NCBI GenBank assembly: GCA_029261655.1
Contig: JAJDAY010000026.1
Coordinates: 138,362 to 202,361, forward strand
From: Nitrospinaceae bacterium
GTDB taxonomy: Bacteria > Nitrospinota > Nitrospinia > Nitrospinales > VA-1
Reading direction: 5' to 3'
DNA length: 64,000 bases
Shown: piece by piece, positions 35,021-63,949 of the stretch
How positions within the stretch are numbered: position 1 is the first letter of the stretch
Layout: every line of letters starts with the position of its first letter
Notes under the pieces: generated by a model
What the model was told of the DNA's origin: nothing
Database searches by the model: none
Seen by the model: only the letters and a program-made list of their open reading frames with translations
Made by a program: the position numbers and the translations under genes

Positions 35021-38000
35021 TTCACTAATTCCTTATAGTATTCCATGACCATTCGCCGATAGTCCTGCGGAGCCTGTTTTTTCATGGCGCGCAATATTTC
35101 ATCTCGAAACTCTCCGGGCACTTTATACTGATCCTCAGAAGGCAGATTGACCTTTTCTTTTTGCATACGCTCCGAACCGCCGCGTCTGGAATCTCTGGAC
35201 TGACCTGTGCCAAATTTCATCGCGGTCGAACGGGATGTTTGTCTGCCTTTTTCACTACTGGCTTCTTTCATTTCCTTGAGCATTTCACGGGTTTCCTGAA
35301 GTTCTTTCAGCGCCTGGTTTTCAGCATTGATGCTCTTTTGCACCTGCTTCTGATTGAGGTTGGTTTCCGCTCTTTGCATGTACCGCCCGGTGCGTGACAT
35401 TTTTGCAGACAGCTCCGGCGTTATGGTCGGATTTTGTTTGTTCATCTGGCTGAATTGTTTCATGAGTTCTTCGGATTCATCCTTCAATCGTTTTTCAGCA
35501 TCAGCCATTTTTTGCAAATCGGCTTTATTCTCCTCCGACAAAAGATTTTCATCGCTTTCCTGAATCATGCGCATCATGGACCCCAGTTTTTTAGAGATCT
35601 CGCTGTTCAGGCGGGTGACTTGTTTGAGGTCAGGAAGGATCCGCTCCCCGAGATCCTCCCTTTGGTTCGGAGTGGTGCGGATATTATTCTGCCACTGGAA
35701 AACCTCGGGGTAAGTATTTTTAAATATATTATTGAATTCGTTCAAGTCGTGCAATTTCGCCAGTTCTTCCAGCGTATTGTATTTCCCCTGAAGCTTGGGC
35801 AACGTGGTTTTGAATCTTTGAAACACCCGGACTCTCAGGGAATCCATTTCCGCCAGTACCAGGGACAGTTCCTTTTTAGCTGAATTCAATTTTGAAAAAT
35901 TTTTCTCCAGCGAGGGGCTTTGATTGGCGTCGACCGTTTTCTGGCCAAGCGTCTGCAGTTTCTGATTAATTTCGATTTCTTTTTCCAGGAGAACGTCCAG
36001 GGATTTCATCGAGGGATGCTCCTCCAGAAATTTACCGTCTTCTCGAAAGATCATCTGGATTTCGTTCACCAGATTTTTTATTTCCGTGAATATCTGTTCG
36101 ATGGGTTCTTCAAACATTTTAGACTGGGCTTCGCGTAGAGATTTGTTAATTTCAGCCGTTTGATCGAGAAGTTTTTTCTGTTTTCCTTCCAAATCCTGAA
36201 TTTTATTCAGCGAATCGTCCAGTTTTCTCATCAACTCCATATCCATCACGTTTTCCATGTCGGATTGGGCTTGCTCTAACTGGCGGGTGAGATTTTTCAT
36301 GGCTTCCGCCATTTTATTCAGTTCTTCCTGCGCCTTGTCCATGTCTCCATTCTTCATCATTTCCATGATTTTATCGAGAGAGGCGGTGAATTGCTCAAAG
36401 TTCATTCCCTTAAAAGCATCGGGGTTAAGAAACTCATCGGGAAGGGACTGGTTCTGACGGGCAAGCTGGTCCATGATTTTTTCCAGCGTTTCCCGGATTT
36501 GATCGACCTTTTTTACGAGCTCCTCGGAATTCATGGGACTTTTTTTGTTGAGAATTTTATCGAACTCTTCTTTGAGCGATTCCGTCAGTTCATGGAGGCG
36601 GTTTTCCAGATCCATGACCTGATCCATTTTTTGCCGGTTCGTCAGCCGCAATAGAAATAGTATATTTGTTTCCAACTGCGAGGTCAGCCTTTCGTTGATG
36701 GAATCCAAATCGAGGACACTGTAGCCAACGGGAGTGGGTTTGTTGATCGTACTTTCAATTTTGTTGATGGCATTGATCTGCTCATCGCGTATTTGGTTCA
36801 GACCGTTGACGATATTATCAAGCAGATTAAAATAAGACCGTGACATATTTTCAAGGGTCTTGGCGCGTTCCCGGATTTGTTGAGCCAGTCCGATGATTTC
36901 AATCAGCGAATCGGCGCTGGCAATGAGGTGATTTTTCCATTTCATCACCGAGATAGGAGTGGCTTTTGATTCCGCCCCCGTGACCAGACTTGTGGCCAGT
37001 TCGGCGATCATTTTTTCAGTCAGTTGATCCTGCAATGCGATCAGGTTTTCCTGTTCCTCCCTGGAGTCAAAGATAGCGAAAGCAAAAGTTTCTGATTGCC
37101 CTTTGTTGGGTCCCTGGACATTATCATTGTCCAGAATCTCCATGAAGTATTCCACCTCATCCCCTGGGTCGAACGCCATTTCGGCAAGAGCCCAGGTATA
37201 GCTCCCCTGTATTTCACTCTCCCCGTTCTTCACCCGCTTGACATGTCGGCGGACTTGTTTGCCGTTGACATAAGCGACCAGCTCAATTTGCTGAATACCG
37301 AAATCATCTTTCGCATCGTAAAACAATTCTATTTTGGCATTTGGGTAATAAATCGGCTTTGGGTTGGCAATGAAAAGCACGATACCCGGAGACTGATCCT
37401 GGGTCAGCGCAACCGAATATTTTTTCGGCAATAGATGCTTTCGGCCTTCGGGATCTTTGATTCTGAACTGGTAATGTCCCTGTTCCTTGACATAAAACCG
37501 GGACGAAAGAACATTGTTCTCCAGTTTCTGCATCGAAAAATTATCCCTGGAATTCCAGACCAGTTCACCGCCGGCAACGGGAGGCTTGGCGGTTGCCTCC
37601 ACCTGGACCTCGGTGCCAGGCAGCACTTTGATGTTTCCATCCGCGGGGTGGATCACCCTGGACGGCAGGCCGGAATACGCAGGATAACTGAATGTAAGTT
37701 TCAAATCCGAAATTTCATATTCGACACTCGTTGCTTCCACCTTCGGGGCCGGCTCCTCTTTGCCTTTCGAGGTTTGGGAATTTTGGACAACAGGTGGAGA
37801 GGCCCAGTTATGGATTCCTCTGGACAAAAAATCCGGCAAAATGACGGTCGCGAGCAACAGGGATAGCACAACCCCCAGAAACCAGTTACGGTTTCGGTTC
37901 GTTTCCTTGAAATCGACAATTGTTTCCGGCTTGAGTTGTTCTACAAGTGAACGGGTCCGGCGAATGTGCTCTTCAATGAACGCGTGCGAGACTTCCCGGT

Positions 38001-38355
38001 CATCTTCCGGGCGGGACAGGCGCCTCTGCAATTGACTGGCGTTGATGAGAGAATTATTCAGATCGGGAAATTTTTTTTCCGTCAACAGGGCGGCGTGATC
38101 GAGAGGAAATTCGGTGAGTTTATTGCGTAGAAAACAATGGATCAGCAGACCCACGAAAACGACTGCAAATAGAACCGCGAGAGGCAACCCAAACTCGCGC
38201 ACTCGATCAGCATAAAAATAGGAAAGCAGGTTGCCGCAAAGAAAACCACCCAGCAAAAAAGCTGAAACGAGATAGACTCCCTGACGGGTCAGAGCCCCCC
38301 TGCTTTTTTTCCGCACCCGGCGGAGAAATTCCTCTATATATTTGAAGGGTTCCAT
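35017..38355 (-). CDS. large membrane-anchored coiled-coil protein (MoxR-module partner, no obvious VWA/MIDAS)
   Basis: 1112 aa with 3 N-terminal TM helices, a beta-rich middle and a very long coiled coil. Overlaps the downstream gene by 4 nt. Confidence 0.6.
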   Translation of the reverse strand: MEPFKYIEEFLRRVRKKSRGALTRQGVYLVSAFLLGGFLCGNLLSYFYADRVREFGLPLAVLFAVVFVGLLIHCFLRNKLTEFPLDHAALLTEKKFPDLNNSLINASQLQRRLSRPEDDREVSHAFIEEHIRRTRSLVEQLKPETIVDFKETNRNRNWFLGVVLSLLLATVILPDFLSRGIHNWASPPVVQNSQTSKGKEEPAPKVEATSVEYEISDLKLTFSYPAYSGLPSRVIHPADGNIKVLPGTEVQVEATAKPPVAGGELVWNSRDNFSMQKLENNVLSSRFYVKEQGHYQFRIKDPEGRKHLLPKKYSVALTQDQSPGIVLFIANPKPIYYPNAKIELFYDAKDDFGIQQIELVAYVNGKQVRRHVKRVKNGESEIQGSYTWALAEMAFDPGDEVEYFMEILDNDNVQGPNKGQSETFAFAIFDSREEQENLIALQDQLTEKMIAELATSLVTGAESKATPISVMKWKNHLIASADSLIEIIGLAQQIRERAKTLENMSRSYFNLLDNIVNGLNQIRDEQINAINKIESTINKPTPVGYSVLDLDSINERLTSQLETNILFLLRLTNRQKMDQVMDLENRLHELTESLKEEFDKILNKKSPMNSEELVKKVDQIRETLEKIMDQLARQNQSLPDEFLNPDAFKGMNFEQFTASLDKIMEMMKNGDMDKAQEELNKMAEAMKNLTRQLEQAQSDMENVMDMELMRKLDDSLNKIQDLEGKQKKLLDQTAEINKSLREAQSKMFEEPIEQIFTEIKNLVNEIQMIFREDGKFLEEHPSMKSLDVLLEKEIEINQKLQTLGQKTVDANQSPSLEKNFSKLNSAKKELSLVLAEMDSLRVRVFQRFKTTLPKLQGKYNTLEELAKLHDLNEFNNIFKNTYPEVFQWQNNIRTTPNQREDLGERILPDLKQVTRLNSEISKKLGSMMRMIQESDENLLSEENKADLQKMADAEKRLKDESEELMKQFSQMNKQNPTITPELSAKMSRTGRYMQRAETNLNQKQVQKSINAENQALKELQETREMLKEMKEASSEKGRQTSRSTAMKFGTGQSRDSRRGGSERMQKEKVNLPSEDQYKVPGEFRDEILRAMKKQAPQDYRRMVMEYYKELVK

Positions 38356-45248: not shown

Positions 45249-46736
45249 ATGGGCAATTACTTTCCAGTGAAATCATCTCAGAATACAGCTATGAAACCGC
45301 CATCAACGAATTTTTTGAATGCCGGAAATTCTTCGTTAAAGCTTAAAACGACATTTCAATTTTGTTTCTTTTTTATGGTTCTATTCATTTGGTCCTGTGT
45401 CGGAGCATGGGCCGCCAATGATGAAAGCACCAGGAATCTAATAGAGAACCAATGTTCCAGTTGTCATAAGTTTGAAGGAAAACACGAGTCCAAATTCAAT
45501 TTAAAAGGCCCCGATCTCATGTGGGCGGGAAACAAATATCAGCGCCCGTGGTTGATCCGCTGGTTGACCGGAAAAGAAGAAAACCTTTATCCCAATGGAT
45601 TCCGGTGGGATATCTCCAGAGACCAGATAAAACATCCTGTTCTTTCGGAAGCCGTGGCCAACGACGTGGCCGATTATTTTGAAAAACATTTTCTTGATTC
45701 CAGAATAAAAAAGAGTTTTGTCGATCTTTCAACTTTCACAGAACAGGAGTCCCAGTTTGGGGCTGCAATTTTCAAGGAATTTTCCTGCCTGGGATGCCAT
45801 CAGATCAAAGAGGACGGTAAAAAAATTGGCGGACCCATCAGCGCTAATCTTTACGATTCGGGAAATCGATACAATTTGGATTGGTGGTCCAAGTTCGCGG
45901 AAAACCCGCAGAATTTTACTCCGCACAGTGGTGAATATCTTGCCGACCTCAGCATGCTGGGAGCGCGATACATCATCGGCTATTTAATGACTTTGGGTGT
46001 TGAGGATTTTAAATATTTTGAACCGTGGAAAGCAGAGCCATTTCAAAAAGCCGATGTCAAACGCGGAGCTACGGTTTACCGCGAGTATTGCGTTCAATGT
46101 CATGGACCACAAGGGGGCGGCGATGGTCCGGGAGCCTCTGGACTGGAACCGAAACCCGCAGTGCACGCGAAAATGGACCTCAATGAATTTCCAGAAGATT
46201 ATCTTTACAATCTGGTTTATTACGGCGGAAAAACGGTTGGCAAATCCCCAAACATGCCCGACTGGGGAATGACCATCGGAGAGCAGGGTGTGGCCGATGT
46301 CATCGCTTATATGCAAGAAACCTTCAAAACCGGTGAAGCGGTATCAGACGATCCAGGAAAGAAGGCCCAGGGAGACTGTCCACAAAAACGCAACACCAAA
46401 ACGGTTTCCTTTAAATACAGCAACAGGAAAAATCCCTTGGAACCCACACCCGCCAACCTGAAAGCGGGAGAAGCTCTGTATCAGAAAACGGCCAAACCCA
46501 TGGCTTGCAAGCTCTGTCATGGGAAACTGGGCGATGGCAAAGGTCCCGGAGGGGCGGGCGTCAAACCCGCACCTCGGAACTTCACCTGTCAGGCGACCAT
46601 GCAGGAAATATCCGACGGACAAATGTTCGGCGTCATCAAGGCCGGTTCTCCCGGTACAGCAATGCCTGCTTTCAAAAATCTCAAGGACAAAGAAGTGTGG
46701 CAACTGATTCTTTATATTCGGAGCTTCTCAAAATGA
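45249..46736 (+). CDS. tetrahaem c-type cytochrome (four class-I-like domains)
   Basis: Signal/TM, then CSSCH, CLGCH, CVQCH and CKLCH. The last domain is paralogous to the two mono-haem cytochromes. Confidence 0.8.
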   Translation: MGNYFPVKSSQNTAMKPPSTNFLNAGNSSLKLKTTFQFCFFFMVLFIWSCVGAWAANDESTRNLIENQCSSCHKFEGKHESKFNLKGPDLMWAGNKYQRPWLIRWLTGKEENLYPNGFRWDISRDQIKHPVLSEAVANDVADYFEKHFLDSRIKKSFVDLSTFTEQESQFGAAIFKEFSCLGCHQIKEDGKKIGGPISANLYDSGNRYNLDWWSKFAENPQNFTPHSGEYLADLSMLGARYIIGYLMTLGVEDFKYFEPWKAEPFQKADVKRGATVYREYCVQCHGPQGGGDGPGASGLEPKPAVHAKMDLNEFPEDYLYNLVYYGGKTVGKSPNMPDWGMTIGEQGVADVIAYMQETFKTGEAVSDDPGKKAQGDCPQKRNTKTVSFKYSNRKNPLEPTPANLKAGEALYQKTAKPMACKLCHGKLGDGKGPGGAGVKPAPRNFTCQATMQEISDGQMFGVIKAGSPGTAMPAFKNLKDKEVWQLILYIRSFSK

Positions 46737-51775: not shown

Positions 51776-53926
51776 TCAAAAGAACGCTCGTGCTCCGAGT
51801 GAAAAGAAATAGTTGGTGGATTTTTGCGAATCGCCAATTACCGTTTCATTGATCCATTCCCTCCCGCCTTCCAACTCAAATCGGAGCCATCGTTTCCAAC
51901 GGTAATCCAGTCTCACCAGCGGTCGGATGTTGACCCGGTCTCCATCGTCATTTTTATTTTTACGATAATCAATTCGTACTCTGGGGTTGATCCGTAAATC
52001 GCGGGTTATGGGAAACCGCAAGTTTAAGTCGGCAGAATAGCTGTCAACGTTTTGCAGGTCTGAATAACGCAGTCCAAATATTGCAATGTCGTTCTCCATA
52101 AAAAGACTACTGCCTATCAATTGGCTACTATAGAAAAACTCCGCTCCGGTGCTGGGCAATGCAGGGACTCCTCCTGAAGCGGGAGTTCCGGATAGTTCGG
52201 ATACGGAAAATTCCCCGTTTAATTGAAACTGTTCATTTAACTCCTGAGTCACGCTGAATATCATGGATCGACTCTTAGCGGTTCGGTCCTTAGCCAATTG
52301 CCGAACCTCCTCTTCACTCAATGTTCTCAACAAATCGGAAATATTACTCACTCCCTGTTGGCCTTGCAACGCGTTGCTTGTGGTTAGAATCGGACTTTTT
52401 CTATAGTCCAAAGTAAGACGCCAACGTGTTTTTACAGGAAAAACATAATCCCCTGAAAAAATAAACAAGTTCAATTCCTTGAAAGAAACATCGTAATCAA
52501 CAAGAGTCAAAAATGACCGTTGGGGATGAAAATAACGAGTCTCTCCTCCCACCGCCTGACGATCCGTTATCCCATCAACATCCTGATTGATTCCATAGAT
52601 GTTAAAATTCCAGTACTTGGCAAATGTACCGAGGTCTAAACTCATTCCATAAAAACGTTTGTTTATGTCCAACGGCTCCACTCTAGTGGATTGAACCGGA
52701 ACGCCTGCAACGCCATTTATTTTAACTTTGGAATTGATTCCATAACTTAGCAAACCTCCATCATATCTTCCAAGAACTCCCCCTGAGCTTTCAAATTGTC
52801 GACCAAACCTGCCAAATAATTTTCGTTTTAAATCTTTAACCTCAATATTCAGGGTATTGACGGAGGCTTCGCCTTCATCACCATTTTCCCTAAAGTCCTG
52901 GTCATACCCTCCCACAAACTGGGTGCGGATCTCATATTTGTCAGATCGGGAACGCGTGCTGAAATCAAAATCAGAGCTTAGGTCAGAACGATTGATCCGG
53001 GACGCCCCCGTACTGTCCGAATCAGTTTCATCAAAACTGTAAAATTGCGAAAAACTGCCAAAAACCTGAGTATCCCAAACCGTTTCCTCAGGATCCCTGG
53101 AAATTTTTGCGCTACGTAATCTTTCTTTAGGCTTGTCTCCGGCAGTGAGCAATCCATTCAGTCTTTGTTTAACCCGGTCCGCACCCTCCCCTTTTGGATA
53201 TTTTTTTAAATATTTTTCATACTCAGCTTTCGCATGGGCCAATTGATTGTTTCTATCGCGTGCCAATCCAATTAATTCCTGAGCATCCTGAGAAAGATCT
53301 GATTCCGGACGACTCAAAATTTTTGTATACAACTGAATGGCGCGCGGGTAGTTTTCCGCCGTCATTTCCTTTTTGGCCTCTTTCATGGCCTCGATGAGTT
53401 TGGGGTCGGCCTTCGAGGGTTTGGCAAGAGGCAAGCCGGGTTCCTTTGGTTCTCGTACTTTTTTTTCTTCTTTGGGTTTGACGTCAGATTTTACGAAAAA
53501 AATCAGCGACCGGAGGTCCCCACTACTTTGCAAATTAAAATCCACTTTACGGGAAAACCTGAATACCAGGACAGGGAGTCTTGGGCTACTGCCGTCAAAT
53601 GTCATTTCTTTCAGAGGTACAGGAATAGAGCGATCCCAGCTCAAGGCCTCCCTGTCTTCAAACTGTTTCAATATTTCCGTGTCCTCCAACGTGACTCCGG
53701 AAATGGGGCTCATTTCAATGAGAACAGTCTCGGATGGCGTAGTGGGTCGATGTTTTACATAACGTAAAGGCAGAATAAAATTAACGCGTATTTCATAGCC
53801 CGTGGCCCGTGTCTCGATTTCGACGTTATCCACAATACGCGCCGAGACCTGTGAGGCACTGAACAACAAGGTCGCCACGCACAAAAATAAAGTAAAAACC
53901 GGTATGATTTTGTTTCTTAAAACCAC
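51776..53926 (-). CDS. outer-membrane protein: periplasmic N-domain + TPR-like linker + C-terminal beta-barrel
   Basis: Signal peptide (..SQVSA|R), Lys/Pro-rich linker, TPR-like helices, then about 450 aa of alternating amphipathic strands ending in ...YFFSLGARAFF (aromatic C-terminus typical of OM barrels). Last gene of the cytochrome operon. Confidence 0.7.
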   Translation of the reverse strand: MVLRNKIIPVFTLFLCVATLLFSASQVSARIVDNVEIETRATGYEIRVNFILPLRYVKHRPTTPSETVLIEMSPISGVTLEDTEILKQFEDREALSWDRSIPVPLKEMTFDGSSPRLPVLVFRFSRKVDFNLQSSGDLRSLIFFVKSDVKPKEEKKVREPKEPGLPLAKPSKADPKLIEAMKEAKKEMTAENYPRAIQLYTKILSRPESDLSQDAQELIGLARDRNNQLAHAKAEYEKYLKKYPKGEGADRVKQRLNGLLTAGDKPKERLRSAKISRDPEETVWDTQVFGSFSQFYSFDETDSDSTGASRINRSDLSSDFDFSTRSRSDKYEIRTQFVGGYDQDFRENGDEGEASVNTLNIEVKDLKRKLFGRFGRQFESSGGVLGRYDGGLLSYGINSKVKINGVAGVPVQSTRVEPLDINKRFYGMSLDLGTFAKYWNFNIYGINQDVDGITDRQAVGGETRYFHPQRSFLTLVDYDVSFKELNLFIFSGDYVFPVKTRWRLTLDYRKSPILTTSNALQGQQGVSNISDLLRTLSEEEVRQLAKDRTAKSRSMIFSVTQELNEQFQLNGEFSVSELSGTPASGGVPALPSTGAEFFYSSQLIGSSLFMENDIAIFGLRYSDLQNVDSYSADLNLRFPITRDLRINPRVRIDYRKNKNDDGDRVNIRPLVRLDYRWKRWLRFELEGGREWINETVIGDSQKSTNYFFSLGARAFF

Positions 53927-53994: not shown

Positions 53995-56625
53995 TCAAAA
54001 ACCTCCGCCACTAGGTCGATGCTCAGGGCCATTACGAGTTTTACTGATGCCGCCGTTATTGTTAAGTATGTGGCATGACCCCGCGCAATCCCTCAATTCG
54101 CTGACGGTGTATTTACGATCCGGGTTCTCAGACTTTTTATGAGGATCCGTTTTGTAATCATTTGCGTGGCAACCGGCGCAATCGGGCTTGAACCCTGCAG
54201 AGGTATAAGTTGGAATTTGATTGTTACTCTTATGACAATCGAGACAACCCACACTGGATCTGTGATCTCCCGGATAATTCGGTGACGAATGCCTGAAGTC
54301 GATTGGCGTAAATCGATTGGTGTTGTGGCATTCATCGCATTGCACATTCGTCACAAAATGGTTGCCCGGTTTGCCCGTTGCCGTGGTGCCGTTGTGACAG
54401 GAGGAACAACTCCCATTGACGGAAGCATGATCGAAATTGGCCGGACTCCAGGCCAAAGTGGTATGGCAGTCATCGCATTGTGCAGAGGTCTGAACGTGGG
54501 TCGGGTGTTTTCCCGTTGCCGTAGTCCCATTATGACAACTGGAACAGGTTCCCGTCACACCGCTGTGGTCGAAATTGACATTCGTCCAACTACTGGTGAC
54601 ATGACAGTCGTCGCACAAATTGTTGGTAGAAATATGATTTTGCGATTTACCCCGCGCTGTTGTTCCATTGTGGCAGTTGAAACAAGTCCCCACAACGGAG
54701 GCGTGATCGACCCGCGTCACCGGGCTCCAGCGCGTGGTGACATGGCAGTCGTCGCAGGTGTTGGCGGTATTGATGTGCGTGCTGTTCTTGCCCGTAGCGG
54801 TTGTTCCATTATGACAACTCGCGCAGTTTCCCGTCACACTGCTGTGGTCAAACCGGGCTCCCGACCAGCTTGAGGTGGTATGACAATCGTCACAGGTGTT
54901 TGCACTCTGAATATGATTGTTGCCTTTGCCTTGCGCGGTCGATCCATTGTGGCAGTTGAAACAAGTCCCAACAACGGAGGCGTGATCGACCCGTGTCACC
55001 GGGCTCCAGCGCGTGGTGACATGACAGTCGTCGCAGGTATTGGCCGTATTGATGTGCGTGCTGTTCTTGCCCGTAGCGGTTGTGCCATTGTGGCAACTCG
55101 CGCAGTTTCCGGTCACACTGCTGTGGTCGAAATTGACATTCGTCCAACCACTCGTGGTATGACAATCGTCACAGGTGTTTGCACTCTGAATATGATTGTT
55201 GCCTTTGCCCTGTGCGGTCGATCCGTTGTGACAGCTGGAACAGGCACCAACAACGGAGGCGTGATCGACCCGTGTCACCGGGCTCCAGCGCGTGGTGACA
55301 TGACAGTCGTCGCAGGTGTTGGCCGTATTGATGTGAGTGCTATTTTTCCCGGTCGCGGTTGTGCCATTATGACAACTCGCGCAGGTTTGGGTGATGCCCG
55401 TGTGATCGAAAGTAGCGGCGGCCCAACTGCTGGTGATATGACAGTTGTCGCACGGCGCGTTGGTCTGCAGGTGATTCGGCGATTTGCCGCGTCCCGCCCC
55501 GCCGGTCACGTGACAGCTGGCGCAGGTGCCCTGCACCGACAAGTGATCCACACGGGTGGCCGGGGTGAACGTGCTGGTGTTGTGACAGTTGTCGCAGGTA
55601 TTGTCGGTGCGCATGTGGTTCGGTGATTTCGCCGTTCCCGCTCCGCCGGGGGTGTGACAGCTCACGCAGGTTTGGGTGATGCCGCTGTGGTCAAAAGTAG
55701 CGACGGCCCAACTGTTGGTGATATGACAGTTGTCGCACGGCGCGTTGGTCTGTAAGTGGTTCGGCGATTTGCCTTGTGCTGTTATTCCATTGTGACAGCT
55801 CACGCAGTTTCCTGTCACACTGTTGTGGTCAAATTTGGCTCCGGACCAGGTTGCTGTGGTATGGCAAGTATCGCAGGTGTTGGGGCTGACGATATGTTGG
55901 GTCCCCTTGCCTTGTGCCATTTTTCCATTATGGCAACTGGAGCAGGTTCCCATGACCGCGTCATGATCCACTCTAACGACGCTTGACCAGGTGCCGCTGT
56001 CGTGGCAGGACTCGCATGTTTTAGTGGTCAGGGGGTGATTGACTGACATGGGTGAGGCCGCTATCTGGCCACCAAGAGTATGGCATGAAGAACAGGTTTT
56101 TGGAGTCCCTGCGAAAACACCGCGTACATGACAACTTTCACATTCAACTTTTGCATGCGCGCCGTCCAAAGGGAATCCGGATGAAAGATGATCAAACTCT
56201 GAAGGTTCTGTCCAATTTTTTTCATCGTAGGTTTTTTCCTGAACCAGTGGATTTTTCTCCTTGAGAGGATCACTGCCTGGTTGAATATTTTCTTCCTCCG
56301 GCGCAGTTTTTATTAAGGCTTTTTCGTCATCACTTTTTCCAAAGAAAAAATCTAAAATCCCCGCAGTGCGTATTATTTTTTCTTTTTGGCGGACTTGAGG
56401 GTTTTGCTCAATTGCGCCAATAGAGGCATCCTCTGAAAATGAAAAATGCGATGGCGTCGAAGCCAATGAACTCAGGGGCAAGACAAGTGTAATCGCCAAT
56501 ATCCAAAACGTTAGAAGACTTTTAAACACGATCAAGCGTTTATGGGGTACCGTGTATTCAAGTCTGACGGGTCTATCGCCAACCTTGAAGGATTTAAATT
56601 TACGACAAACCATCTCGCTTTTCAT
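53995..56625 (-). CDS. giant multihaem c-type cytochrome (29 CxxCH + 1 Cx3CH), paired-CXXCH repeat type
   Basis: 876 aa with a signal/TM anchor. 29 CxxCH motifs were counted by eye in about 90-aa modules (..CASCHNG..H..T.NTCDDCH..), plus CAGSCH. ATGA overlap with the upstream cytochrome gene. Confidence 0.85.
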   Translation of the reverse strand: MKSEMVCRKFKSFKVGDRPVRLEYTVPHKRLIVFKSLLTFWILAITLVLPLSSLASTPSHFSFSEDASIGAIEQNPQVRQKEKIIRTAGILDFFFGKSDDEKALIKTAPEEENIQPGSDPLKEKNPLVQEKTYDEKNWTEPSEFDHLSSGFPLDGAHAKVECESCHVRGVFAGTPKTCSSCHTLGGQIAASPMSVNHPLTTKTCESCHDSGTWSSVVRVDHDAVMGTCSSCHNGKMAQGKGTQHIVSPNTCDTCHTTATWSGAKFDHNSVTGNCVSCHNGITAQGKSPNHLQTNAPCDNCHITNSWAVATFDHSGITQTCVSCHTPGGAGTAKSPNHMRTDNTCDNCHNTSTFTPATRVDHLSVQGTCASCHVTGGAGRGKSPNHLQTNAPCDNCHITSSWAAATFDHTGITQTCASCHNGTTATGKNSTHINTANTCDDCHVTTRWSPVTRVDHASVVGACSSCHNGSTAQGKGNNHIQSANTCDDCHTTSGWTNVNFDHSSVTGNCASCHNGTTATGKNSTHINTANTCDDCHVTTRWSPVTRVDHASVVGTCFNCHNGSTAQGKGNNHIQSANTCDDCHTTSSWSGARFDHSSVTGNCASCHNGTTATGKNSTHINTANTCDDCHVTTRWSPVTRVDHASVVGTCFNCHNGTTARGKSQNHISTNNLCDDCHVTSSWTNVNFDHSGVTGTCSSCHNGTTATGKHPTHVQTSAQCDDCHTTLAWSPANFDHASVNGSCSSCHNGTTATGKPGNHFVTNVQCDECHNTNRFTPIDFRHSSPNYPGDHRSSVGCLDCHKSNNQIPTYTSAGFKPDCAGCHANDYKTDPHKKSENPDRKYTVSELRDCAGSCHILNNNGGISKTRNGPEHRPSGGGF
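54598..55434. repeat. three tandem near-identical ~279-bp repeats inside the 29-haem cytochrome gene (plus a second duplicated block at about 55400-55490 and 55690-55780)
   Basis: ggtatgacaatcgtcacaggtgtttgcactctgaatatgattgttgcctttgcc recurs at 54877 and 55156 (period 279 nt = 93 aa). Flanking copies are about 90% identical. Antisense ORFs 54289..54873 and 54880..55626 show the same repeating peptide. Confidence 0.85.
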
Positions 56626-58613
56626 TGCAATAGCCCCCTGCGTTGCATGTTGACTTCTTTAAAAGATTCCGTTGTGTGGCATCTTTCGCACTGGTTTCCA
56701 AATCGACCCCTGTGAGTATCATCTCCCTGATGGCACTCTGAACAGTATTTTGGAAGTTCCATTTTCTTTTCCACTTCCTTGGTATGACATGCTTTGCACT
56801 CCAACCCGGAATGAGCCCCATCAAGTTTAAATTTTGACTGCGTGTTGTGGTCAAACTTCCACAGGTTCCAATGGTTGGGGTTATGACAGGTTTCACAGCG
56901 AGTGCCCTGGCGTTTCTTGTGAAAATCATCCTTGAGATGGCAATTGATGCAATCTGCCTTAACAGCGTTGAATTCCATGGAAGAGTGGCAATCGTCGCAA
57001 GTCGTAATTGCATGAATTCCGATAAGAGGAAAATTTGTCAGATCATGATCGAATTGAATATTTTTTCCCCAGGCGATATTGTTATGGCAACGGTCGCATT
57101 TTTCGCCTACCTGTCCTTTATGAACATCATCGGCTTTGTGACAGCCATAACAGGTTTTGGAAACCTGAATCTTTTTCTCGACCGGTTGGGTATGGCATAA
57201 GTGACAGTTCAAGTCTTTATGGTAACCACGCAAAAGAAACTTTGTTTGCCGGCTGTGATCAAATTGCCAGAGGTTCCATCCTTCCGATTTGTGACACAAA
57301 CCGCAATCGCTTCCCAGCCGTTTTTTATGCATGTCATCCTTGATATGGCAATCCACACACTTGGACCCCACATTTTTAAATTCAGCTGAAAGATGGCATT
57401 GTTCGCAGGTGGTTGCCACGTGCAATCCCATTAGAGGAAACAGGGTTTTATTGTGATCAAACTTAACGTTTTTTTTCCAGCTTTGCTGGTCATGGCATTT
57501 ATCGCACTTCTTTCCCTCCTGGCCTTTATGCACATCGTCAGCTTTATGACAGTCGTAGCACTTGGTTTTATTTTTTTCTTTTTCTGGAAGTCCTTTATGA
57601 CAATTCTGGCACTGGAGTTTCGTGTGCTTTCCGACCAGCTTAAATTTGGTGTCTTTATCGTGATCAAAATGCACTGTTTTCCATACTTTTGAGTTGTGGC
57701 AGGATTCGCATTTGGTGCCGAATCCGCCTTTATGCTCATCATCATTTTTATGGCAGGAAATGCAGGTTATCTTTAGTTTTTCTTTTTTGGGATTGCCTTT
57801 GTGGCAATCATTGCATTTCAACTTTGCGTGGCTGTCTTTCAATGGAAATTTGGTGTCCTTGGCGTGATCGAAGCTCGTTTTTTTCCATGTTTTTGGGGTG
57901 TGACATTTTTCACATTTTATTCCCAGATCTCCTCGGTGTACGTCGTTCAGAGCGTGACACCCGTTACAAGTTTTAAGCGTTTTTTTGTATCTCTCATCGG
58001 GGTGGCAACTGTTGCATTTGACTTCCCGATGCTTGCCTTCTAAAGCAAATTTGGTTTTCTTGTCGTGATCGAAAAAAGCTTTACTCCAGGCTGTTTCCTT
58101 GTGGCAGTCCTGGCATTTCTTTCCCAGTCTTTCAAGGTGCGGGTCATCGTTCTTATGGCAGAAATAGCAGTCCACAGGAGATTCCCGGTATTTCTTTTTA
58201 GAATCATGGCAGTCGTAACATTTGACCGAGGTGTGAGCCCCTTTTAAGGGGAAGTCTGTGAATTGGTGATCAAACGTGTCTTCATCCAGATGAATAATGT
58301 CCGCGCTACGTCCTTCATGATCGGTGTGACAGAGTTTGCATTTTTTTCTGGCGATATCTTTTTTCAGGCCGTGAAACCCCTTTTTATCAACGATGTCCTT
58401 ATTCACTTTCTTGTGGCAATCACGGCACAATTTATTTTGCGTCTTCTTGTCAAACAGGGAATGGCATTCAGTACACTCGGTTTCAATCTTGGCGTGTCCC
58501 TCAATTACGGGTCCTGGCATCACAAGATTTTCCAAAGGCCCTGCAACTGCCCGCGATGAAGAAAGCATTAAACAGACTCCTATTGCCAATCCAATTAAAA
58601 AACGAACATTCAC
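56622..58613 (-). CDS. 27-haem c-type cytochrome: nine tandem triheme cytochrome-c7-like modules
   Basis: 27 CxxCH motifs in a regular about 75-aa unit (F.H.....F.L.G.H....C..CH-(10-12)-C..CH..D.H...G..C..CH), as in PpcA/c7 polymers. Start placed at the GTG at 58613 (VNVRFLIGLAIGVCLMLSSSRAVA signal), because the longer ORF would overlap the upstream gene by 82 nt. Confidence 0.85.
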   Translation of the reverse strand: MNVRFLIGLAIGVCLMLSSSRAVAGPLENLVMPGPVIEGHAKIETECTECHSLFDKKTQNKLCRDCHKKVNKDIVDKKGFHGLKKDIARKKCKLCHTDHEGRSADIIHLDEDTFDHQFTDFPLKGAHTSVKCYDCHDSKKKYRESPVDCYFCHKNDDPHLERLGKKCQDCHKETAWSKAFFDHDKKTKFALEGKHREVKCNSCHPDERYKKTLKTCNGCHALNDVHRGDLGIKCEKCHTPKTWKKTSFDHAKDTKFPLKDSHAKLKCNDCHKGNPKKEKLKITCISCHKNDDEHKGGFGTKCESCHNSKVWKTVHFDHDKDTKFKLVGKHTKLQCQNCHKGLPEKEKNKTKCYDCHKADDVHKGQEGKKCDKCHDQQSWKKNVKFDHNKTLFPLMGLHVATTCEQCHLSAEFKNVGSKCVDCHIKDDMHKKRLGSDCGLCHKSEGWNLWQFDHSRQTKFLLRGYHKDLNCHLCHTQPVEKKIQVSKTCYGCHKADDVHKGQVGEKCDRCHNNIAWGKNIQFDHDLTNFPLIGIHAITTCDDCHSSMEFNAVKADCINCHLKDDFHKKRQGTRCETCHNPNHWNLWKFDHNTQSKFKLDGAHSGLECKACHTKEVEKKMELPKYCSECHQGDDTHRGRFGNQCERCHTTESFKEVNMQRRGLLQ

Positions 58614-58639: not shown

Positions 58640-59593
58640 TTAATAAGCATGCACCGCTATCACATGAAATATGCCCGAACACAACAGCATGATCGCAAGC
58701 GGTAGATGAAACACATGCCAAAGAGAGAACATGCGCTCGTAGAAATTAAATTCTGCGACTTTACGAACATGGCGTAAAAGGGTCCAAACCCTGCGATTGG
58801 CTTCTTTTTGCATCCTTCGTTGATGAGAGGATTCCCCGTCACCGCGCTTTCTTCGGAAATTCAATTCAAGTGTCATCAAACGTCTGATTTGCCAAAATTC
58901 AACACGGGTCGTAATTCCCATAACAAGGACACTTGCCAAACTTTGAAAAAAACCTTGGCGGGAGTTCAACACTTTTTCTGAAAAAGTAAGCAGGTGTTTG
59001 GAAATCGGGGGAGAAAAATCCAACATTTCCGCCATCTCCCCTTTTTCGGTTTCGTATCTCTTCCGCAAATCGTTTAGAGTTGCGCGGCGCCCATACAAAC
59101 CATAGTGAATTCTTTTGTACATATACCGTCCAATCAGACCACTGGAAGCGACCACGATCATTGAAAAGAAAGCCACGTTGCTATTGAGTGATCCGAGTTG
59201 AAAATTTGCATGGAATAAAATGCATACAGGCCCAATAACCCCCATGATCATGTGAGTCTGGAACATTGTTTTTACGCTTCCAAAAGGCTCCATGAAACGG
59301 TATCGCTTACGCAATGGATAAATAACCAGAGCGAGCATCAGGACCGACCCTACGATCCCCAGGACATAACCCGTTCCTGATTCCGCAGTGAAATACTCGC
59401 GCGCGCGAATTTTCCATCCGGCGTAGATAACAAAGCAGACCGTAAAAAAGAAAAATACATTCGCGATTTTGGCTAAAAGTTTTTCTTCTCCCTTGGAGGA
59501 AACAGCCTTCACTTTTTTTTCATCCAGTGAGTTGGTGTCACCCAGAAAATCTGTTGACGTATTTCCAGTCTGGTGTTTTGACAATGCATTCAT
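58640..59593 (-). CDS. integral membrane protein, putative di-haem b-type cytochrome (quinol-interacting)
   Basis: 5 TM helices with His pairs inside TM3 (QTHMIMGVIGPVCILFH, spacing 14) and TM5 (WHVFH...FHVIAVH). Positioned between the Sel1/ANK protein and the multihaem cytochromes. Confidence 0.5.
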   Translation of the reverse strand: MNALSKHQTGNTSTDFLGDTNSLDEKKVKAVSSKGEEKLLAKIANVFFFFTVCFVIYAGWKIRAREYFTAESGTGYVLGIVGSVLMLALVIYPLRKRYRFMEPFGSVKTMFQTHMIMGVIGPVCILFHANFQLGSLNSNVAFFSMIVVASSGLIGRYMYKRIHYGLYGRRATLNDLRKRYETEKGEMAEMLDFSPPISKHLLTFSEKVLNSRQGFFQSLASVLVMGITTRVEFWQIRRLMTLELNFRRKRGDGESSHQRRMQKEANRRVWTLLRHVRKVAEFNFYERMFSLWHVFHLPLAIMLLCSGIFHVIAVHAY

Positions 59594-59604
59594 GATTGGA
59601 TCGG

Positions 59605-62496
59605 TTATTTGGTTGAAAAAATATCAGCCAGCCAGCTTTTAGAATTATTATGGTTTTCAAGAAGTGCCAAGATGTCGTTCCTGCCTTTAGGCACAATCAT
59701 ATGAGCCTGCTCACGATTATTATTCCTGAGATAGGGATCGGCTCCATTTGCCAACAAGATTTCGATGGTCTCCAGATGCCCTCCTGTCACAGCCATTAAT
59801 AAAGCGGTATTGCCGGCGATATTTTTTTCATTAACCTTTGATCCCTTGTTGATGAGCTGACGTACAAGAGCAGAATTTCCCAGGTCCGCGGCAAGCATGA
59901 GAGGGGTATTTCCGGTTTTGCTCTTTACAAAAATATCGGCTCCTGCCAAAACCAAACGCCGGGCAGTTGCCTCATGCCCTTTTGCAGTGGCCTGCAATAA
60001 TGGAGTGTTCCCATCGCGGTCTTTAAATTCCGTGGTTGTTTTTTTACCCAACAAAGTTTCAACGACCATCGTCTGGCCGGCGTCGGCAGCAAACCACAAC
60101 ACGTCACGCCCTTCCGAGTCCTGAGAATTCAAACGGGCGCCTTTATTGAGCAACGATTTCACCAAATCGATCTTTCCTGAATAGGATGCGAGCATCAACA
60201 CGGTAATTCCATCACCACGCTTCAGATTGGTATCAGCGCCGCGATCCAATAACAGTTGCGCCACCTGTTCATGAGAGTTCAGGGCGGCGTTGATCAATGG
60301 GCTGGCTCCATCACTTGATTGAGCATTGGGGTTTGCGCCCGCATTCAACAACTGTTCGACAACAGAAAGATGGCCCTTTTCAGCGGCCCAATGCAGGGGC
60401 GATTTTCCATCCGGTTGCGCCACCTTTGGGTCCGCCCCTTTGGATAATAAAGCGCGCGCAATTTCTTCATGGCCTTTCCAGGCGGCACGGCTGAGGGGCG
60501 TGTGCCCCTGGGGGTCGGTGAAATTCACGTTGTCGCCTCTGGAAAGCAAGGCGTTAACGACTTTGGTTTGCCCGCGCCAGGCGGCAGTCATTAATGGAGA
60601 CCAACCTTTAAAGGTAGCCTCCGGCGAAAGGTTTGCGAGAATACTTTTTGAACTGGAAGCAAACGGGGAGGAATTCTTATTTCTGCTTGTATCCAGAGTC
60701 GCGCCCCTGGCAAGGAGCGTTTGCAGAATGGGTTTATATCCTCTGACATGGGCGATCTGAGCCGCCGTCATATCCTTATGGTTCTTGATCTCAACGTCAG
60801 CGCCTTTTTCCAAAAGGACCCCCACAATGGTTTTGTTTCTTTTTTGCGTCGCCAATAATAAAGGTGTGTTTCCGTTTGGGTCTTGAGAGTTTAGATCTGC
60901 CCCCGCTTCCAGCAATTGGAAGATGGTGGAAGGGTCTCCCCTGTTCACCGCCATAAAAAGAGCGTTGTCTCCGTATTTATTGACCGCGTGAACATCCGCG
61001 CCCGCCTTAAGCAAAGTATTGATCACGTCCAGGCGATTTTCTTCCACCGCCAGTATCAGAGCGGTTCGCCCCGACGCTTCGCGCGCATTGATATTCACAC
61101 CCAGTTTGATCAAGGAACCCACCTCCTCCGCCAAACCCCGGCTTGCTGCCTGCAGTAAATTTTTCTCTGCGACGCCATTGATATTGGCTTTCAGCTTTTG
61201 ACGTTCTTCCTGTTCTTGCTCCAGCTTTGCCTTGGCGGTCAAATGACCTTGTTCAAATGCCGCCTGAAACCATTTCCTAGCCTTGCTCTGGCTCCGCTTC
61301 ACTCCCAACCCATTTTCAAACATGACTCCCAGGTTGTATTGAGCATTGGCATGGCCTTGAGACGCGGACATTTCCAGCCAACGAACTGCTTCTTTCTGAC
61401 TTTTTGGCAAACCCAGTCCCGACCGATATAAATTCGATAATTGAAATTGCGCTTCGGCATGTCCAGCCTTTGCAAGCGGTTTTATTAATTGAATCGCTTT
61501 AGAAAAGTCTTCATTGAGTACAGCGGTTTTGGAGGTTTGCAGTTGTTGCGTGGAATAAAGACTCTTTAAGATGAGTTTGTCTTGCTGAGATTTTGCGATT
61601 TGGATTGCGGTCTGGTCGTCGCTGTTTTTGATTTCTAAATCTGCTCCATGGTTCAGTAACGCCAGGACCAGTTTTGAATCATTTTTTTGAGTGGCCAGGA
61701 TCAAAGACGAGTTGCCATTTTTATCCTGAGCATTGGTATTTGCATTGGCGTTCAGAAGCCAGGTCACAACGGGAAGATGCCCTTTGCCAGCCGCGATCAA
61801 TAGAGCAGAATTGCCAAAATCGTCGATGGCATGTATATCCGCTCCTGCTTTCAACAGAGATTGTACAATTTCCAAATATCCCTGATCGGACGCCAGCATC
61901 AAGGGGGTCCGTCCTTTTTCATCCGTGACATTGACATTTATTTTTTTCTCGATGAGTTCCTTTATTTTTTTAATATCGCCAGTAAAGGAATGCCGTAGTA
62001 AATTCTTTTTATTGATAAGGACCGAATCGGTTTTGAAACGCTTCTGGATTTTCTCTTCCCTTTCCAGTTTGCGTTTCGCCATCACATGATCTTTTGCCGC
62101 CGCCGCGCGGAACCAATCCAACGCCTCCTGTTGGTTTTTCTCCACACCCCAGCCGTTTTCATACATGATTCCCATCGTGTACTGAGCGTCCAAATTGTCC
62201 TGTGCGGCGGCGCGATTCAGCCATTTGATGGCCTGCTCATAATCTCTGGGGACGCCTTTTCCTGAACGCAATAAACTGGCCAGTTGATACTGGGCTTCAG
62301 AATTCCCGTCCCTGGCCAAAGGCTCCAGCAACTCAGCGGCTCTGGAGAAATCTCTCACGCGGGCCGCGGCTTTGGCCGCATCCATGTCTCCGGCATGGCT
62401 GAGGGAAAAATTAAAAGCCCAGGATAAAATCAAAAAGCTCAGGTTTGCCAAAGCGATTATTGGGATTTTTGATTTCATTGAATATGAAAAGTTCAT
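59605..62496 (-). CDS. secreted Sel1-repeat + ankyrin-repeat protein with internally duplicated [3xSel1-4xANK] architecture
   Basis: Signal peptide. Two Sel1-like blocks (GDM.AAKAA...AQYQLASLLRSGKGVPRDYEQAIKWL; GHAEAQFQLSNLYRSGLGLPKSQKEAVRWL) each followed by ANK repeats (TPLMLAS..G..E.V..LL.AGAD...D..G.T.L), about 20 ANK repeats in total. Confidence 0.8.
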   Translation of the reverse strand: MNFSYSMKSKIPIIALANLSFLILSWAFNFSLSHAGDMDAAKAAARVRDFSRAAELLEPLARDGNSEAQYQLASLLRSGKGVPRDYEQAIKWLNRAAAQDNLDAQYTMGIMYENGWGVEKNQQEALDWFRAAAAKDHVMAKRKLEREEKIQKRFKTDSVLINKKNLLRHSFTGDIKKIKELIEKKINVNVTDEKGRTPLMLASDQGYLEIVQSLLKAGADIHAIDDFGNSALLIAAGKGHLPVVTWLLNANANTNAQDKNGNSSLILATQKNDSKLVLALLNHGADLEIKNSDDQTAIQIAKSQQDKLILKSLYSTQQLQTSKTAVLNEDFSKAIQLIKPLAKAGHAEAQFQLSNLYRSGLGLPKSQKEAVRWLEMSASQGHANAQYNLGVMFENGLGVKRSQSKARKWFQAAFEQGHLTAKAKLEQEQEERQKLKANINGVAEKNLLQAASRGLAEEVGSLIKLGVNINAREASGRTALILAVEENRLDVINTLLKAGADVHAVNKYGDNALFMAVNRGDPSTIFQLLEAGADLNSQDPNGNTPLLLATQKRNKTIVGVLLEKGADVEIKNHKDMTAAQIAHVRGYKPILQTLLARGATLDTSRNKNSSPFASSSKSILANLSPEATFKGWSPLMTAAWRGQTKVVNALLSRGDNVNFTDPQGHTPLSRAAWKGHEEIARALLSKGADPKVAQPDGKSPLHWAAEKGHLSVVEQLLNAGANPNAQSSDGASPLINAALNSHEQVAQLLLDRGADTNLKRGDGITVLMLASYSGKIDLVKSLLNKGARLNSQDSEGRDVLWFAADAGQTMVVETLLGKKTTTEFKDRDGNTPLLQATAKGHEATARRLVLAGADIFVKSKTGNTPLMLAADLGNSALVRQLINKGSKVNEKNIAGNTALLMAVTGGHLETIEILLANGADPYLRNNNREQAHMIVPKGRNDILALLENHNNSKSWLADIFSTK

Positions 62497-62499
62497 GGA

Positions 62500-63810
62500 T
62501 TATTCAGTCCCATGTTTGGTTTCAACCGTGATTCCTATTTCTTTAAGAAACGGTGTCGGGAGTATCCCGCCGGCGCACACGAGGATGGCGTCGTTACTGA
62601 TTTCCTGAACCTCGCCCGCGTTGTCGATTTTCACTTTGTCTTTTGTAATGGATTTGACGTTGGATTCCATCAATACATTCAATCTCCCTTCTTCATCCAT
62701 CCGAGCGACCGTATCCCGGTTTTTTTGTTTGGCGCGGGAAAAGGATTCACTGCGATAAGACAGCGTGACGGTTGTCCCCTTCTCCTCTGCAATGCTGGTC
62801 GCGGCTTCCAGAGCGCTGTCTCCCCCGCCGACCACCAAGACGTGCTGGCCCCTGTATTGTTCAGGGTCGATGAGGCGATAAACCACTTTGGAAAGGTCTT
62901 CTCCAGGGACGCCAAGTTTTCTGGGAGTTCCCCGTCTGCCGATGGATAGTAAAACTCCCCTCGTTTTGTAGGTGGCACGCTGGGTTTTTACTTCAATGAA
63001 ATTTTCCCTGCGGGTCACGGACTCGACCCGTTCGGAATAATTGATTTTGACGTTTGTCTTTTTTTCAACATCTTCCCAAAATTCGAGCAGAGCTTCTTTG
63101 GTGGTTTCCTTGAATGTTGTTTTCCCGAACAGGGGAAGAATGACAGGGGAAGTCATGACGACTTTGCCGCGCGGGTAATGAGAAACGGTTCCGCCCAATG
63201 TTTCCTGTTCCAGGGTCACCGAACGAAGCTTGTGTTCCATCGCCGCTAAAGATGCGGAAAACCCCGCAGGTCCGGCACCGATGACCACCAGATCCAAAAG
63301 ATCTCCTTTACCAATACCCTCTAATTTACGAATGGAATCCACGGCCTGTTTGCCCTGAGTCACGGCGTTACGTATTAGCCCCATGCCGCCCAATTCACCG
63401 GCAATGAAAACTCCTGGAATATTTGTTTCAAAGCTGGGTTTGACCAAAGGGATGTCCACCCCTCGTTTTTCGGTACCAAAAACCAAAGTGATCGCTCCCA
63501 TAGGGCAGGAAACCTTGCAAGACCCGTGACCGATACAATGGGTGGGTCCAATCAACTCGGCCTTCCCCTGTATCATTCCTAATACATTTTTTTCCGGGCA
63601 GGCAGAAATACAGGCCTTGCACCCCACGCATTGAACGGGGTCAATTATGGGATGCAGTGAGGAGGGTTCTATCAATCCGGCTTCGCGTTCCTTGTCCCGA
63701 TGAGCCAGGCTTCGTATCTCCAACCTTTTTCGACGGGCCAAATACCAAACCCAGACCAAAAACGCCGGGACGAGATAAACTAAAGAACTTTGGAGGGTCA
63801 GTCGCATCAT
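62500..63810 (-). CDS. membrane-anchored 2x[4Fe-4S] ferredoxin-domain / FAD-NAD(P)-binding oxidoreductase (thioredoxin-reductase-like)
   Basis: N-terminal TM, CVGCKACISACP and CIGHGSCKVSCP clusters, FAD GxGxxG (VIGAGPAGFSASLAA) and an NAD(P) site (VLVVGGGDSALEAA). 3 nt upstream of the Sel1/ANK gene. ORF open to 63864, with alternative starts at 63810 or 63807. Confidence 0.75.
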   Translation of the reverse strand: MMRLTLQSSLVYLVPAFLVWVWYLARRKRLEIRSLAHRDKEREAGLIEPSSLHPIIDPVQCVGCKACISACPEKNVLGMIQGKAELIGPTHCIGHGSCKVSCPMGAITLVFGTEKRGVDIPLVKPSFETNIPGVFIAGELGGMGLIRNAVTQGKQAVDSIRKLEGIGKGDLLDLVVIGAGPAGFSASLAAMEHKLRSVTLEQETLGGTVSHYPRGKVVMTSPVILPLFGKTTFKETTKEALLEFWEDVEKKTNVKINYSERVESVTRRENFIEVKTQRATYKTRGVLLSIGRRGTPRKLGVPGEDLSKVVYRLIDPEQYRGQHVLVVGGGDSALEAATSIAEEKGTTVTLSYRSESFSRAKQKNRDTVARMDEEGRLNVLMESNVKSITKDKVKIDNAGEVQEISNDAILVCAGGILPTPFLKEIGITVETKHGTE

Positions 63811-63949
63811 TGAAAATGTGATTTTTGGGAGGAAAATTGTTTGATTTGCTCGATAGTTAAGCAAATTTCAAGCCAGTATAAAAAACACGATATAAACCAA
63901 TGCTTTAAAAAATATCGAAATATAAATTTTTAGGATTACCAGTAACAAG

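Follow-up and report, generated by a model that had tools for sequence, protein, structure and literature searches.

The 64,000-nucleotide (nt) stretch of Nitrospinaceae bacterium DNA analysed here, referred to as the window (assembly GCA_029261655.1, contig JAJDAY010000026.1, positions 138,362 to 202,361), encodes on its minus strand a 663-amino-acid (aa) multihaem cytochrome c with 27 CXXCH haem-attachment motifs. The stop codon of its open reading frame (ORF) lies at 56622-56624, and a GTG at 58613 was chosen as the start. Although the mechanical ORF reaches further upstream, to a TTG at 58721, the 663-aa start was preferred because it begins with a signal peptide, because the upstream gene ends at 58640 and because the homologues are equally long. 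The gene and its parts are as follows.

56622..58613, minus strand: gene for the predicted periplasmic 27-haem multihaem cytochrome c, 663 aa
58542..58613, minus strand: signal peptide, aa 1-24, ending in SSSRAVA before GP, as read from the sequence
58326..58541, minus strand: atypical three-haem N-terminal 'cap', aa 25-96, with motif spacing 16/29 and invariant extra His at 40, 81 and 99
56676..58325, minus strand: eight regular three-haem repeats of ~68 aa, aa 97-646, with six invariant His each

The N-terminal signal peptide (MNVRFLIGLAIGVCLMLSSSRAVA, followed by GP) is of the classical type, and the mature apoprotein has a computed mass of ~74 kDa, rising to ~91 kDa with the haems included; per haem, the polypeptide amounts to 23.7 aa or 2.74 kDa. 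The 27 CXXCH motifs fall into nine groups of three, with Cys-to-Cys spacings of 16/29 in group 1, 40/17/18 in group 2 and 33/16-18/18 in the seven repeats that follow. All Cys of the mature protein lie inside these motifs, and a motif scan of the 663 aa returned zero CX3CH, CX4CH and CXXCK variants. Twenty thousand shuffles of the protein's own residues yielded a mean of 0.38 CXXCH motifs and a maximum of 4, which bears out the 27 haem sites in nine triplets proposed by an earlier reading of this DNA made from its letters and ORFs (the sequence-only reading).

Assembly error is common in repetitive genes, and the neighbouring cytochrome gene carries 279-nt tandem repeats with 87% and 76% identity, raising the question of whether the motif count stems from a frameshift, a collapse or a repeat expansion, or whether the ORF is a real gene at all. 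However, DNA repeats within the 27-haem gene share no more than 61-74% identity over 72 nt, 24 database homologues have the identical 27-motif layout, and an 87%-identical homologue of equal length, flanked by the same neighbours, lies on an independent metagenome contig. The diverged DNA repeats and the identically laid-out homologues therefore rule out both a frameshift and a collapsed assembly as a source of extra motifs, and an artefact of any of these kinds is extremely improbable. At the protein level the repeats share 38-57% identity, and they are old and diverged.

An alignment of 64 repeats from the 27-haem protein and diverse relatives gave the consensus W..FDH...T.F.L.G.H....CxxCH(~11)CxxCH..DDxH.G..G..CxxCH, whose invariant positions are the three CxxCH, two His ahead of motif 1, one Asp, and a further His located between motifs 2 and 3. 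Outside the motifs, precisely 27 His reach ≥96% conservation in 25 full-length 27-haem orthologues, one per haem, providing a candidate second His ligand for all haems, while no Met is conserved within the repeats. Given this set of His and the lack of a conserved Met, all 27 haems are predicted to be bis-His, and none His-Met.

The 27-haem gene is the fourth of six co-directional, tightly packed genes separated by gaps of 3, 11, 26, −4 and 68 nt, an arrangement that matches the PCC3 clusters, which comprise a porin, a Thr/Ser/Ala/Gly-rich extracellular and a periplasmic multihaem cytochrome, and an inner-membrane protein (He et al. 2017). From the upstream end, the five other genes are as follows.

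62500..63864, minus strand: membrane-anchored 2x[4Fe-4S] ferredoxin plus FAD/NAD(P) pyridine-nucleotide-disulfide oxidoreductase, 454 aa as listed, its true start probably being an internal Met
59605..62496, minus strand: secreted Sel1 and ankyrin repeat protein, 963 aa, with gaps of 11 nt and 3 nt to its neighbours
58640..59593, minus strand: PCC3-type inner-membrane protein, 317 aa, predicted di-haem b carrier
53995..56625, minus strand: second multihaem cytochrome, rich in Thr/Ser/Gly/Asn, 876 aa, with 29 CXXCH and one CX3CH
51776..53926, minus strand: putative outer-membrane barrel/porin, 716 aa, with a signal peptide, a short TPR-like N-terminal part and a C-terminus ending in ARAFF

In PCC3, the inner-membrane protein is ~300 aa long and has five transmembrane (TM) helices with SGXXG on TM4 and (W)X3HX13H on TM3 and TM5, and the periplasmic cytochrome has a median of 21 haems (He et al. 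2017). The adjoining 317-aa protein fits this description, with five hydrophobic helices, SGLIG at 151 and HX13H at 114-128 and 296-310, the second of these motifs reading WHVFH... and the first having Met instead of Trp. The 27-haem protein displays the very many CXXCH motifs, the repeats, the signal peptide and the low residue-to-haem ratio of a PCC3 periplasmic cytochrome, and the 876-aa protein has the composition of the Thr/Ser/Ala/Gly-rich giant second cytochrome, called 'extracellular' in the literature, with 12.6% T, 10.4% S and 8% G, a ~23-aa period and CAGSCH as its CX3CH motif. The start codon of the 876-aa gene, an ATG, overlaps the stop of the 27-haem gene. Clusters in the PCC3-defining taxa Gallionellaceae, Methylotenera and Aquabacterium are homologous, with 45-47% full-length identity and the same gene order. 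Judged by its motif architecture and gene context, the 27-haem protein is a PCC3 periplasmic 'wire' cytochrome, an additional member of an already described and catalogued family whose function is predicted. We consider it probable that this PCC3-type porin-cytochrome operon serves extracellular electron transfer and that the protein is its periplasmic multihaem cytochrome.

The known PCC3 periplasmic cytochrome (Slit_1447 of Sideroxydans lithotrophicus ES-1, likened here by description only; Gallionellaceae 'cluster 20' of Hoover et al. 2023) is likewise secreted, peptide-minimised and repeat-built, with 21, 24 or 27 haems, and is encoded after a five-helix HX13H protein and ahead of a Thr/Ser-rich giant cytochrome and a barrel; Gallionellaceae contain 45-46% identical relatives with the same gene order. 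The host here is not a known iron oxidiser, and the nearest genome relative is a Nitrospinaceae metagenome-assembled genome at 57% identity. A further difference from PCC3 elsewhere is that, in this lineage, the genes for the Fe-S flavoprotein and the ankyrin/Sel1 protein run in the direction of the operon rather than divergently. Within the second cytochrome gene, three 279-nt tandem DNA repeats lie at 54631-55467 (87% and 76% identity), so the repeat number of this cytochrome may be unstable or sensitive to assembly.

A word-indexed search with the 27-haem protein returned more than 6,000 matches among 8,000 candidates scored. Clusters at 50% identity number 4,779, 2,815 and 1,069 for E≤1e-3, 1e-10 and 1e-30, respectively, and relatives occur in at least 565 species-representative genomes. 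The host taxa include Nitrospinaceae, Nitrospira, Methylotenera, Gallionellaceae, Aquabacterium, Chromatiaceae, Thiodiazotropha and Sedimenticolaceae, among which Gallionellaceae, Methylotenera, Aquabacterium and Sedimenticolaceae are groups with described PCC3 clusters. Haem counts were multiples of three in all 79 scored homologues from other genomes, with 21 (n=49), 24 (n=2), 27 (n=24), 30 (n=2) and 33 (n=2) haems in the genome loci and a range of 21-45 among the best database matches. The 27-haem form is the second commonest, and is therefore a common variant rather than an extreme one. More distant relatives, assembled from related haem repeats, contain 78-94 CXXCH in single chains of 1,855-2,321 aa, the 94 lying in 2,321 aa.

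Gene order was compared across 80 related loci (L001-L080). The gene for the inner-membrane protein lies directly upstream of the 27-haem homologue in 74 of them, and a homologue of the 716-aa protein was found in 38 of the 42 loci having at least 8 kb of downstream DNA. A tblastn search with the second cytochrome matched all 80 loci, some of the weak matches falling inside the 27-haem homologue itself. Homologues of the ankyrin/Sel1 protein occur in 35-41 of the 80 loci, and in 48 of the 58 loci with enough upstream DNA a homologue of the Fe-S flavoprotein is encoded no more than 6 kb upstream of the gene for the inner-membrane protein. The flavoprotein gene is mostly divergent and 76-700 nt away; it is co-directional in the window and in the Nitrospinaceae locus L001.

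This synteny bears on how the protein might be placed in the envelope. In MtrCAB-type porin-cytochrome complexes, the periplasm-facing multihaem cytochrome sits within the barrel. By analogy with MtrA/MtoA, the 27-haem protein could thread the 716-aa barrel, extend part-way into the periplasm and be fed by diffusible carriers rather than directly by the inner-membrane protein, a placement with which the cytochrome-cytochrome-barrel gene order is compatible and for which MtrCAB and the model of He et al. provide the precedent of a barrel-inserted cytochrome. Like the decahaem cytochromes MtrA, MtoA and DmsE of the MtrCAB/MtoAB type, it would be the periplasm-side wire of a porin-cytochrome conduit, and it shares their low residue-to-haem ratio. 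However, the inner-membrane-protein gene is its immediate upstream neighbour in those 74 loci, and 27 haems far exceed the length needed to fill a barrel. It differs from these cytochromes in having 27 haems rather than 10 and a triheme rather than a pentahaem NrfB-like repeat, and it has no meaningful sequence match to them: the DmsE/MtrA family TIGR03508 gave E=0.0076 for the 27-haem protein compared with 8e-42 for the second cytochrome, whose best specific family this is, albeit below its cut-off. We regard threading of the barrel by the 27-haem protein as unlikely, and a PCC3 wire between the two membranes remains the preferred reading.

The sequence-only reading had taken the repeat for the c7/PpcA fold, with the CH..DD.H spacing as its signature and nine c7 modules in the chain. 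Pfam Cytochrome_C7 (PF14522) matches the whole protein in 8 stretches with 123.4 bits against a cut-off of 24.8 bits (3e-36); it is a broad profile, on which the differently built neighbouring cytochrome scores equally well. The repeat profile, searched against the PDB, found its best match in the Geobacter c7-type dodecahaem protein GSU1996 (3OV0, E=3e-7), with a shift in register: DDxH and motif 3 align with 'HDIH...CRICH' of GSU1996 (haem I), and the haem III and IV region of GSU1996 pairs with FDH...G.H and motifs 1 and 2 of the following repeat. The c7-like unit consists of motif 3 of repeat n and motifs 1-2 of repeat n+1. Rebuilt in this register, it aligns contiguously and with all three motifs to residues 20-80 (domain A) of GSU1996 (E=1e-4), and the boundaries of the best whole-protein Pfam stretch, aa 157-220, coincide exactly with those of a shifted unit. 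PF14522 matched 40 of 40 single shifted units at E≤0.01, over profile positions 6-66 of 67, while the shifted unit from the window protein scored 24.1 bits, slightly below the cut-off. With a PpcA sequence whose length and matched residues agree with the PDB profile search, the three motifs all align, as does the His ahead of motif III, at an hhalign probability of 58%. The shifted register therefore gives eight c7 units, two N-terminal haems and one C-terminal haem, so the nine triplets stand but nine c7 modules do not.

The more specific c7 models respond weakly, both scoring far below cut-off. TIGR04257 (the c7-type triheme domain of Geobacter 'nanowire' cytochromes) had no match on the whole protein at E≤0.01 and matched 20 of 40 single units, with a best E of 0.0033 and its 40-bit cut-off not reached; NF043011 (Geobacter c7, CytC7_Geobact) likewise had no whole-protein match at E≤0.01 and matched 6 of 40 single units, with a best E of 0.019. 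A single-sequence phmmer search of the PDB with the 27-haem protein did not find c7, returning only a weak match to NrfH. Where PpcA has His17 and GSU1996 has His20, the first His of its 'HDIH', the alignments place the first Asp of DDxH, and because of this Asp and a new invariant His in FDH the ligand order in the c7 register, H[I]HH[III][IV], differs from the HH[I]H[III][IV] of PpcA; in c7-type domains the ligand ahead of [III] is His or Met. By these alignments, the DDxH signature is a hallmark of the PCC3 periplasmic cytochrome family and not a c7 feature, contrary to the sequence-only reading, and the repeats are, on profile comparison, remote and compacted relatives of the c7-type domain. 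The proposed kinship with c7 thus survives as remote homology, through PF14522 and GSU1996, but not at the level of the specific models or of the ligand order.

Concatenation of three-haem units into a haem wire within a single polypeptide is shared with the Geobacter proteins GSU1996, GSU0592 and GSU2210. GSU2210 of G. sulfurreducens has long been noted as a 27-haem c7-type polymer, so the earlier statement that such polymers have about four modules is incomplete; its likeness to the present protein lies in the published haem count. GSU1996 is the nearest solved relative, with a III-to-IV spacing of 17 compared with 16-18 here, but the homology is remote (E=1e-4 to 3e-7), and each of its domains has one His-Met haem (PMC10138318), whereas all haems here are predicted to be bis-His. 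One distal His has been relocated to the FDH motif, with Asp at the PpcA-His17 position. PpcA (PDB 1OS6/2LDO) also packs three bis-His haems into ~70 residues, but here the domain is not free-standing, the ligand order is different and the NF043011 cut-off is not attained. An orthologue of the Geobacter polymers, that is, a GSU2210-like nonamer of PpcA-fold domains, would account for the equal haem count, the Cytochrome_C7 match and the contiguous alignment of the three motifs to domain A. It would not account for the silence of TIGR04257 on the whole protein and its best unit E of 0.0033 against a 40-bit cut-off, for the lack of the conserved Met that would serve the His-Met haem typical of GSU1996 domains, for a ligand order unlike that of PpcA, for units of ~68 aa rather than ~80 aa, or for the PCC3 gene context and the taxa, which differ from those of the Geobacter c7 polymers. 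From the comparisons with GSU1996, PpcA and the c7 models, and from the gene context, we judge such orthology very unlikely.

With GSU1996 as the nearest solved relative, a role in storage also has to be weighed, as this role has been proposed for GSU1996, GSU0592 and GSU2210 and a capacitor role has been raised for PCC3 cytochromes as well (Hoover et al. 2023). The 27-haem protein would then be a soluble periplasmic store of up to 27 electrons, to be released later, and form no fixed bridge from the inner to the outer membrane. However, its gene is strictly syntenic with those of an inner-membrane redox protein and of an outer-membrane module, as would be expected of a fixed pathway, and haem numbers in the family are quantised around 21-27, which is the estimated requirement for crossing the periplasm. 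Storage in place of a bridge appears improbable to us, although capacitor and wire roles are compatible and not mutually exclusive.

The bridging role itself, which the sequence-only reading had put forward as a periplasm-spanning nanowire, is plausible but not new for the PCC3 family. PCC3 periplasmic cytochromes have been proposed to span the periplasm, with AlphaFold models described as 'long and mostly linear', and the Gallionellaceae protein is reported with '21, 24, and 27' haems (Hoover et al. 2023). By one calculation, accompanied by a pointer to PCC3-type clusters, crossing a periplasm of ~200 Å takes about 27 haems (Edwards et al. 2019), and with 23.7 aa per haem the 27-haem protein is among the peptide-minimised wire cytochromes discussed in that work.

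The analysis shows how the motifs are arranged, which ligands are conserved, the family to which the protein belongs, its synteny and its remote homology to c7; that the PCC3 wire is loaded with haem, how long and how linear it is, that it touches the inner-membrane protein and the barrel, and which way electrons flow are what we infer. After Sec export, the protein would be covalently loaded with 27 bis-His low-spin haems, held by minimal peptide (~24 residues per haem) in a three-haem cap and eight ~68-residue three-haem repeats. The haems are expected to form a single continuous, roughly linear chain of ~20 nm or longer, which would serve as an electron relay linking the di-haem-b-like inner-membrane protein, encoded just upstream, with the barrel and second cytochrome of the outer membrane, encoded just downstream, and would bridge the periplasm without diffusible carriers. 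Flow could run in either direction, for the oxidation of Fe(II), minerals or a cathode, or for the reduction of an extracellular acceptor.

Several observations weigh against this pathway. The full-length AlphaFold2 model, built with 25 orthologues, reached a predicted local distance difference test (pLDDT) score of 41 and a predicted template-modelling (pTM) score of 0.18 and is unusable for shape or length, and the better match to the porin-threading MtrA/DmsE cytochromes belongs to the downstream cytochrome rather than to the 27-haem protein. We infer the barrel nature of the 716-aa protein, for which scans of Pfam, NCBIfam and the PDB returned no barrel family or structure, only a TPR/BamD-like N-terminal stretch. 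In addition, proteomes of S. lithotrophicus ES-1 show PCC3 proteins at low or zero levels, PCC3 transcription in strain CL21 is only moderate, and no PCC3 component has been characterised experimentally.

The two genes at the head of the operon suggest a possible extension of the pathway to the cytoplasm. The flavoprotein begins with one helix followed by ARRKR, and its redox domains should therefore face the cytoplasm. PCC3's inner-membrane protein has been likened to the transmembrane domain of ferric reductase and NOX (He et al. 2017); with a cytoplasm-facing flavoprotein, a split chain from NAD(P)H to haem b to the wire is therefore conceivable. In such a chain the flavoprotein would mediate electron exchange between cytoplasmic NAD(P)(H) and the inner-membrane protein's two b-haems; the inner-membrane protein would pass the electrons directly to a 27-haem wire whose length matches the periplasm, while the secreted ankyrin/Sel1 protein might serve as a scaffold or chaperone and the repeat would represent a distinct c7 derivative in which an axial ligand has been relocated. 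Independently of such a chain, the ankyrin/Sel1 protein could be a scaffold or chaperone for long cytochromes. Taken as a whole, the proposal that PCC3 is not quinone-linked but forms a split NOX/ferric-reductase-like trans-envelope chain, with a compacted, all-bis-His c7 derivative as its repeat, is speculative and in our view doubtful. The PCC3 papers searched contain no mention of flavoprotein or ankyrin neighbours, and the conserved Fe-S flavoprotein and ankyrin/Sel1 proteins beside PCC3 clusters may be a new observation.

Elsewhere in the window, a futalosine-pathway menaquinone biosynthesis decarboxylase is encoded at 11477-13306 on the plus strand (TIGR03701, above cut-off), which together with genes for UvrA, MetG and the ATP synthase alpha and beta subunits identifies the window as ordinary chromosome of a menaquinone-using bacterium. 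A 495-aa protein with four CXXCH (45249-46736, plus strand) has a C-terminal domain resembling Leptospirillum cytochrome 579 (NF033864, E=1e-19, below cut-off), a cytochrome that has been linked to iron oxidation. On the minus strand, a 1,112-aa ORF at 35017-38355 had no NCBIfam match at E≤1e-10.

The PCC3 periplasmic family is notable for being very widespread, with at least 565 genomes and more than 1,000 clusters at 50% identity and E≤1e-30, and for a haem number stepped in threes around the value calculated for bridging the periplasm. As a single-copy gene in a compact operon, the 27-haem cytochrome lends itself reasonably well to heterologous expression and to solving its structure, and its flavoprotein and ankyrin neighbours offer a testable lead on how the pathway may be linked to cytoplasmic metabolism.

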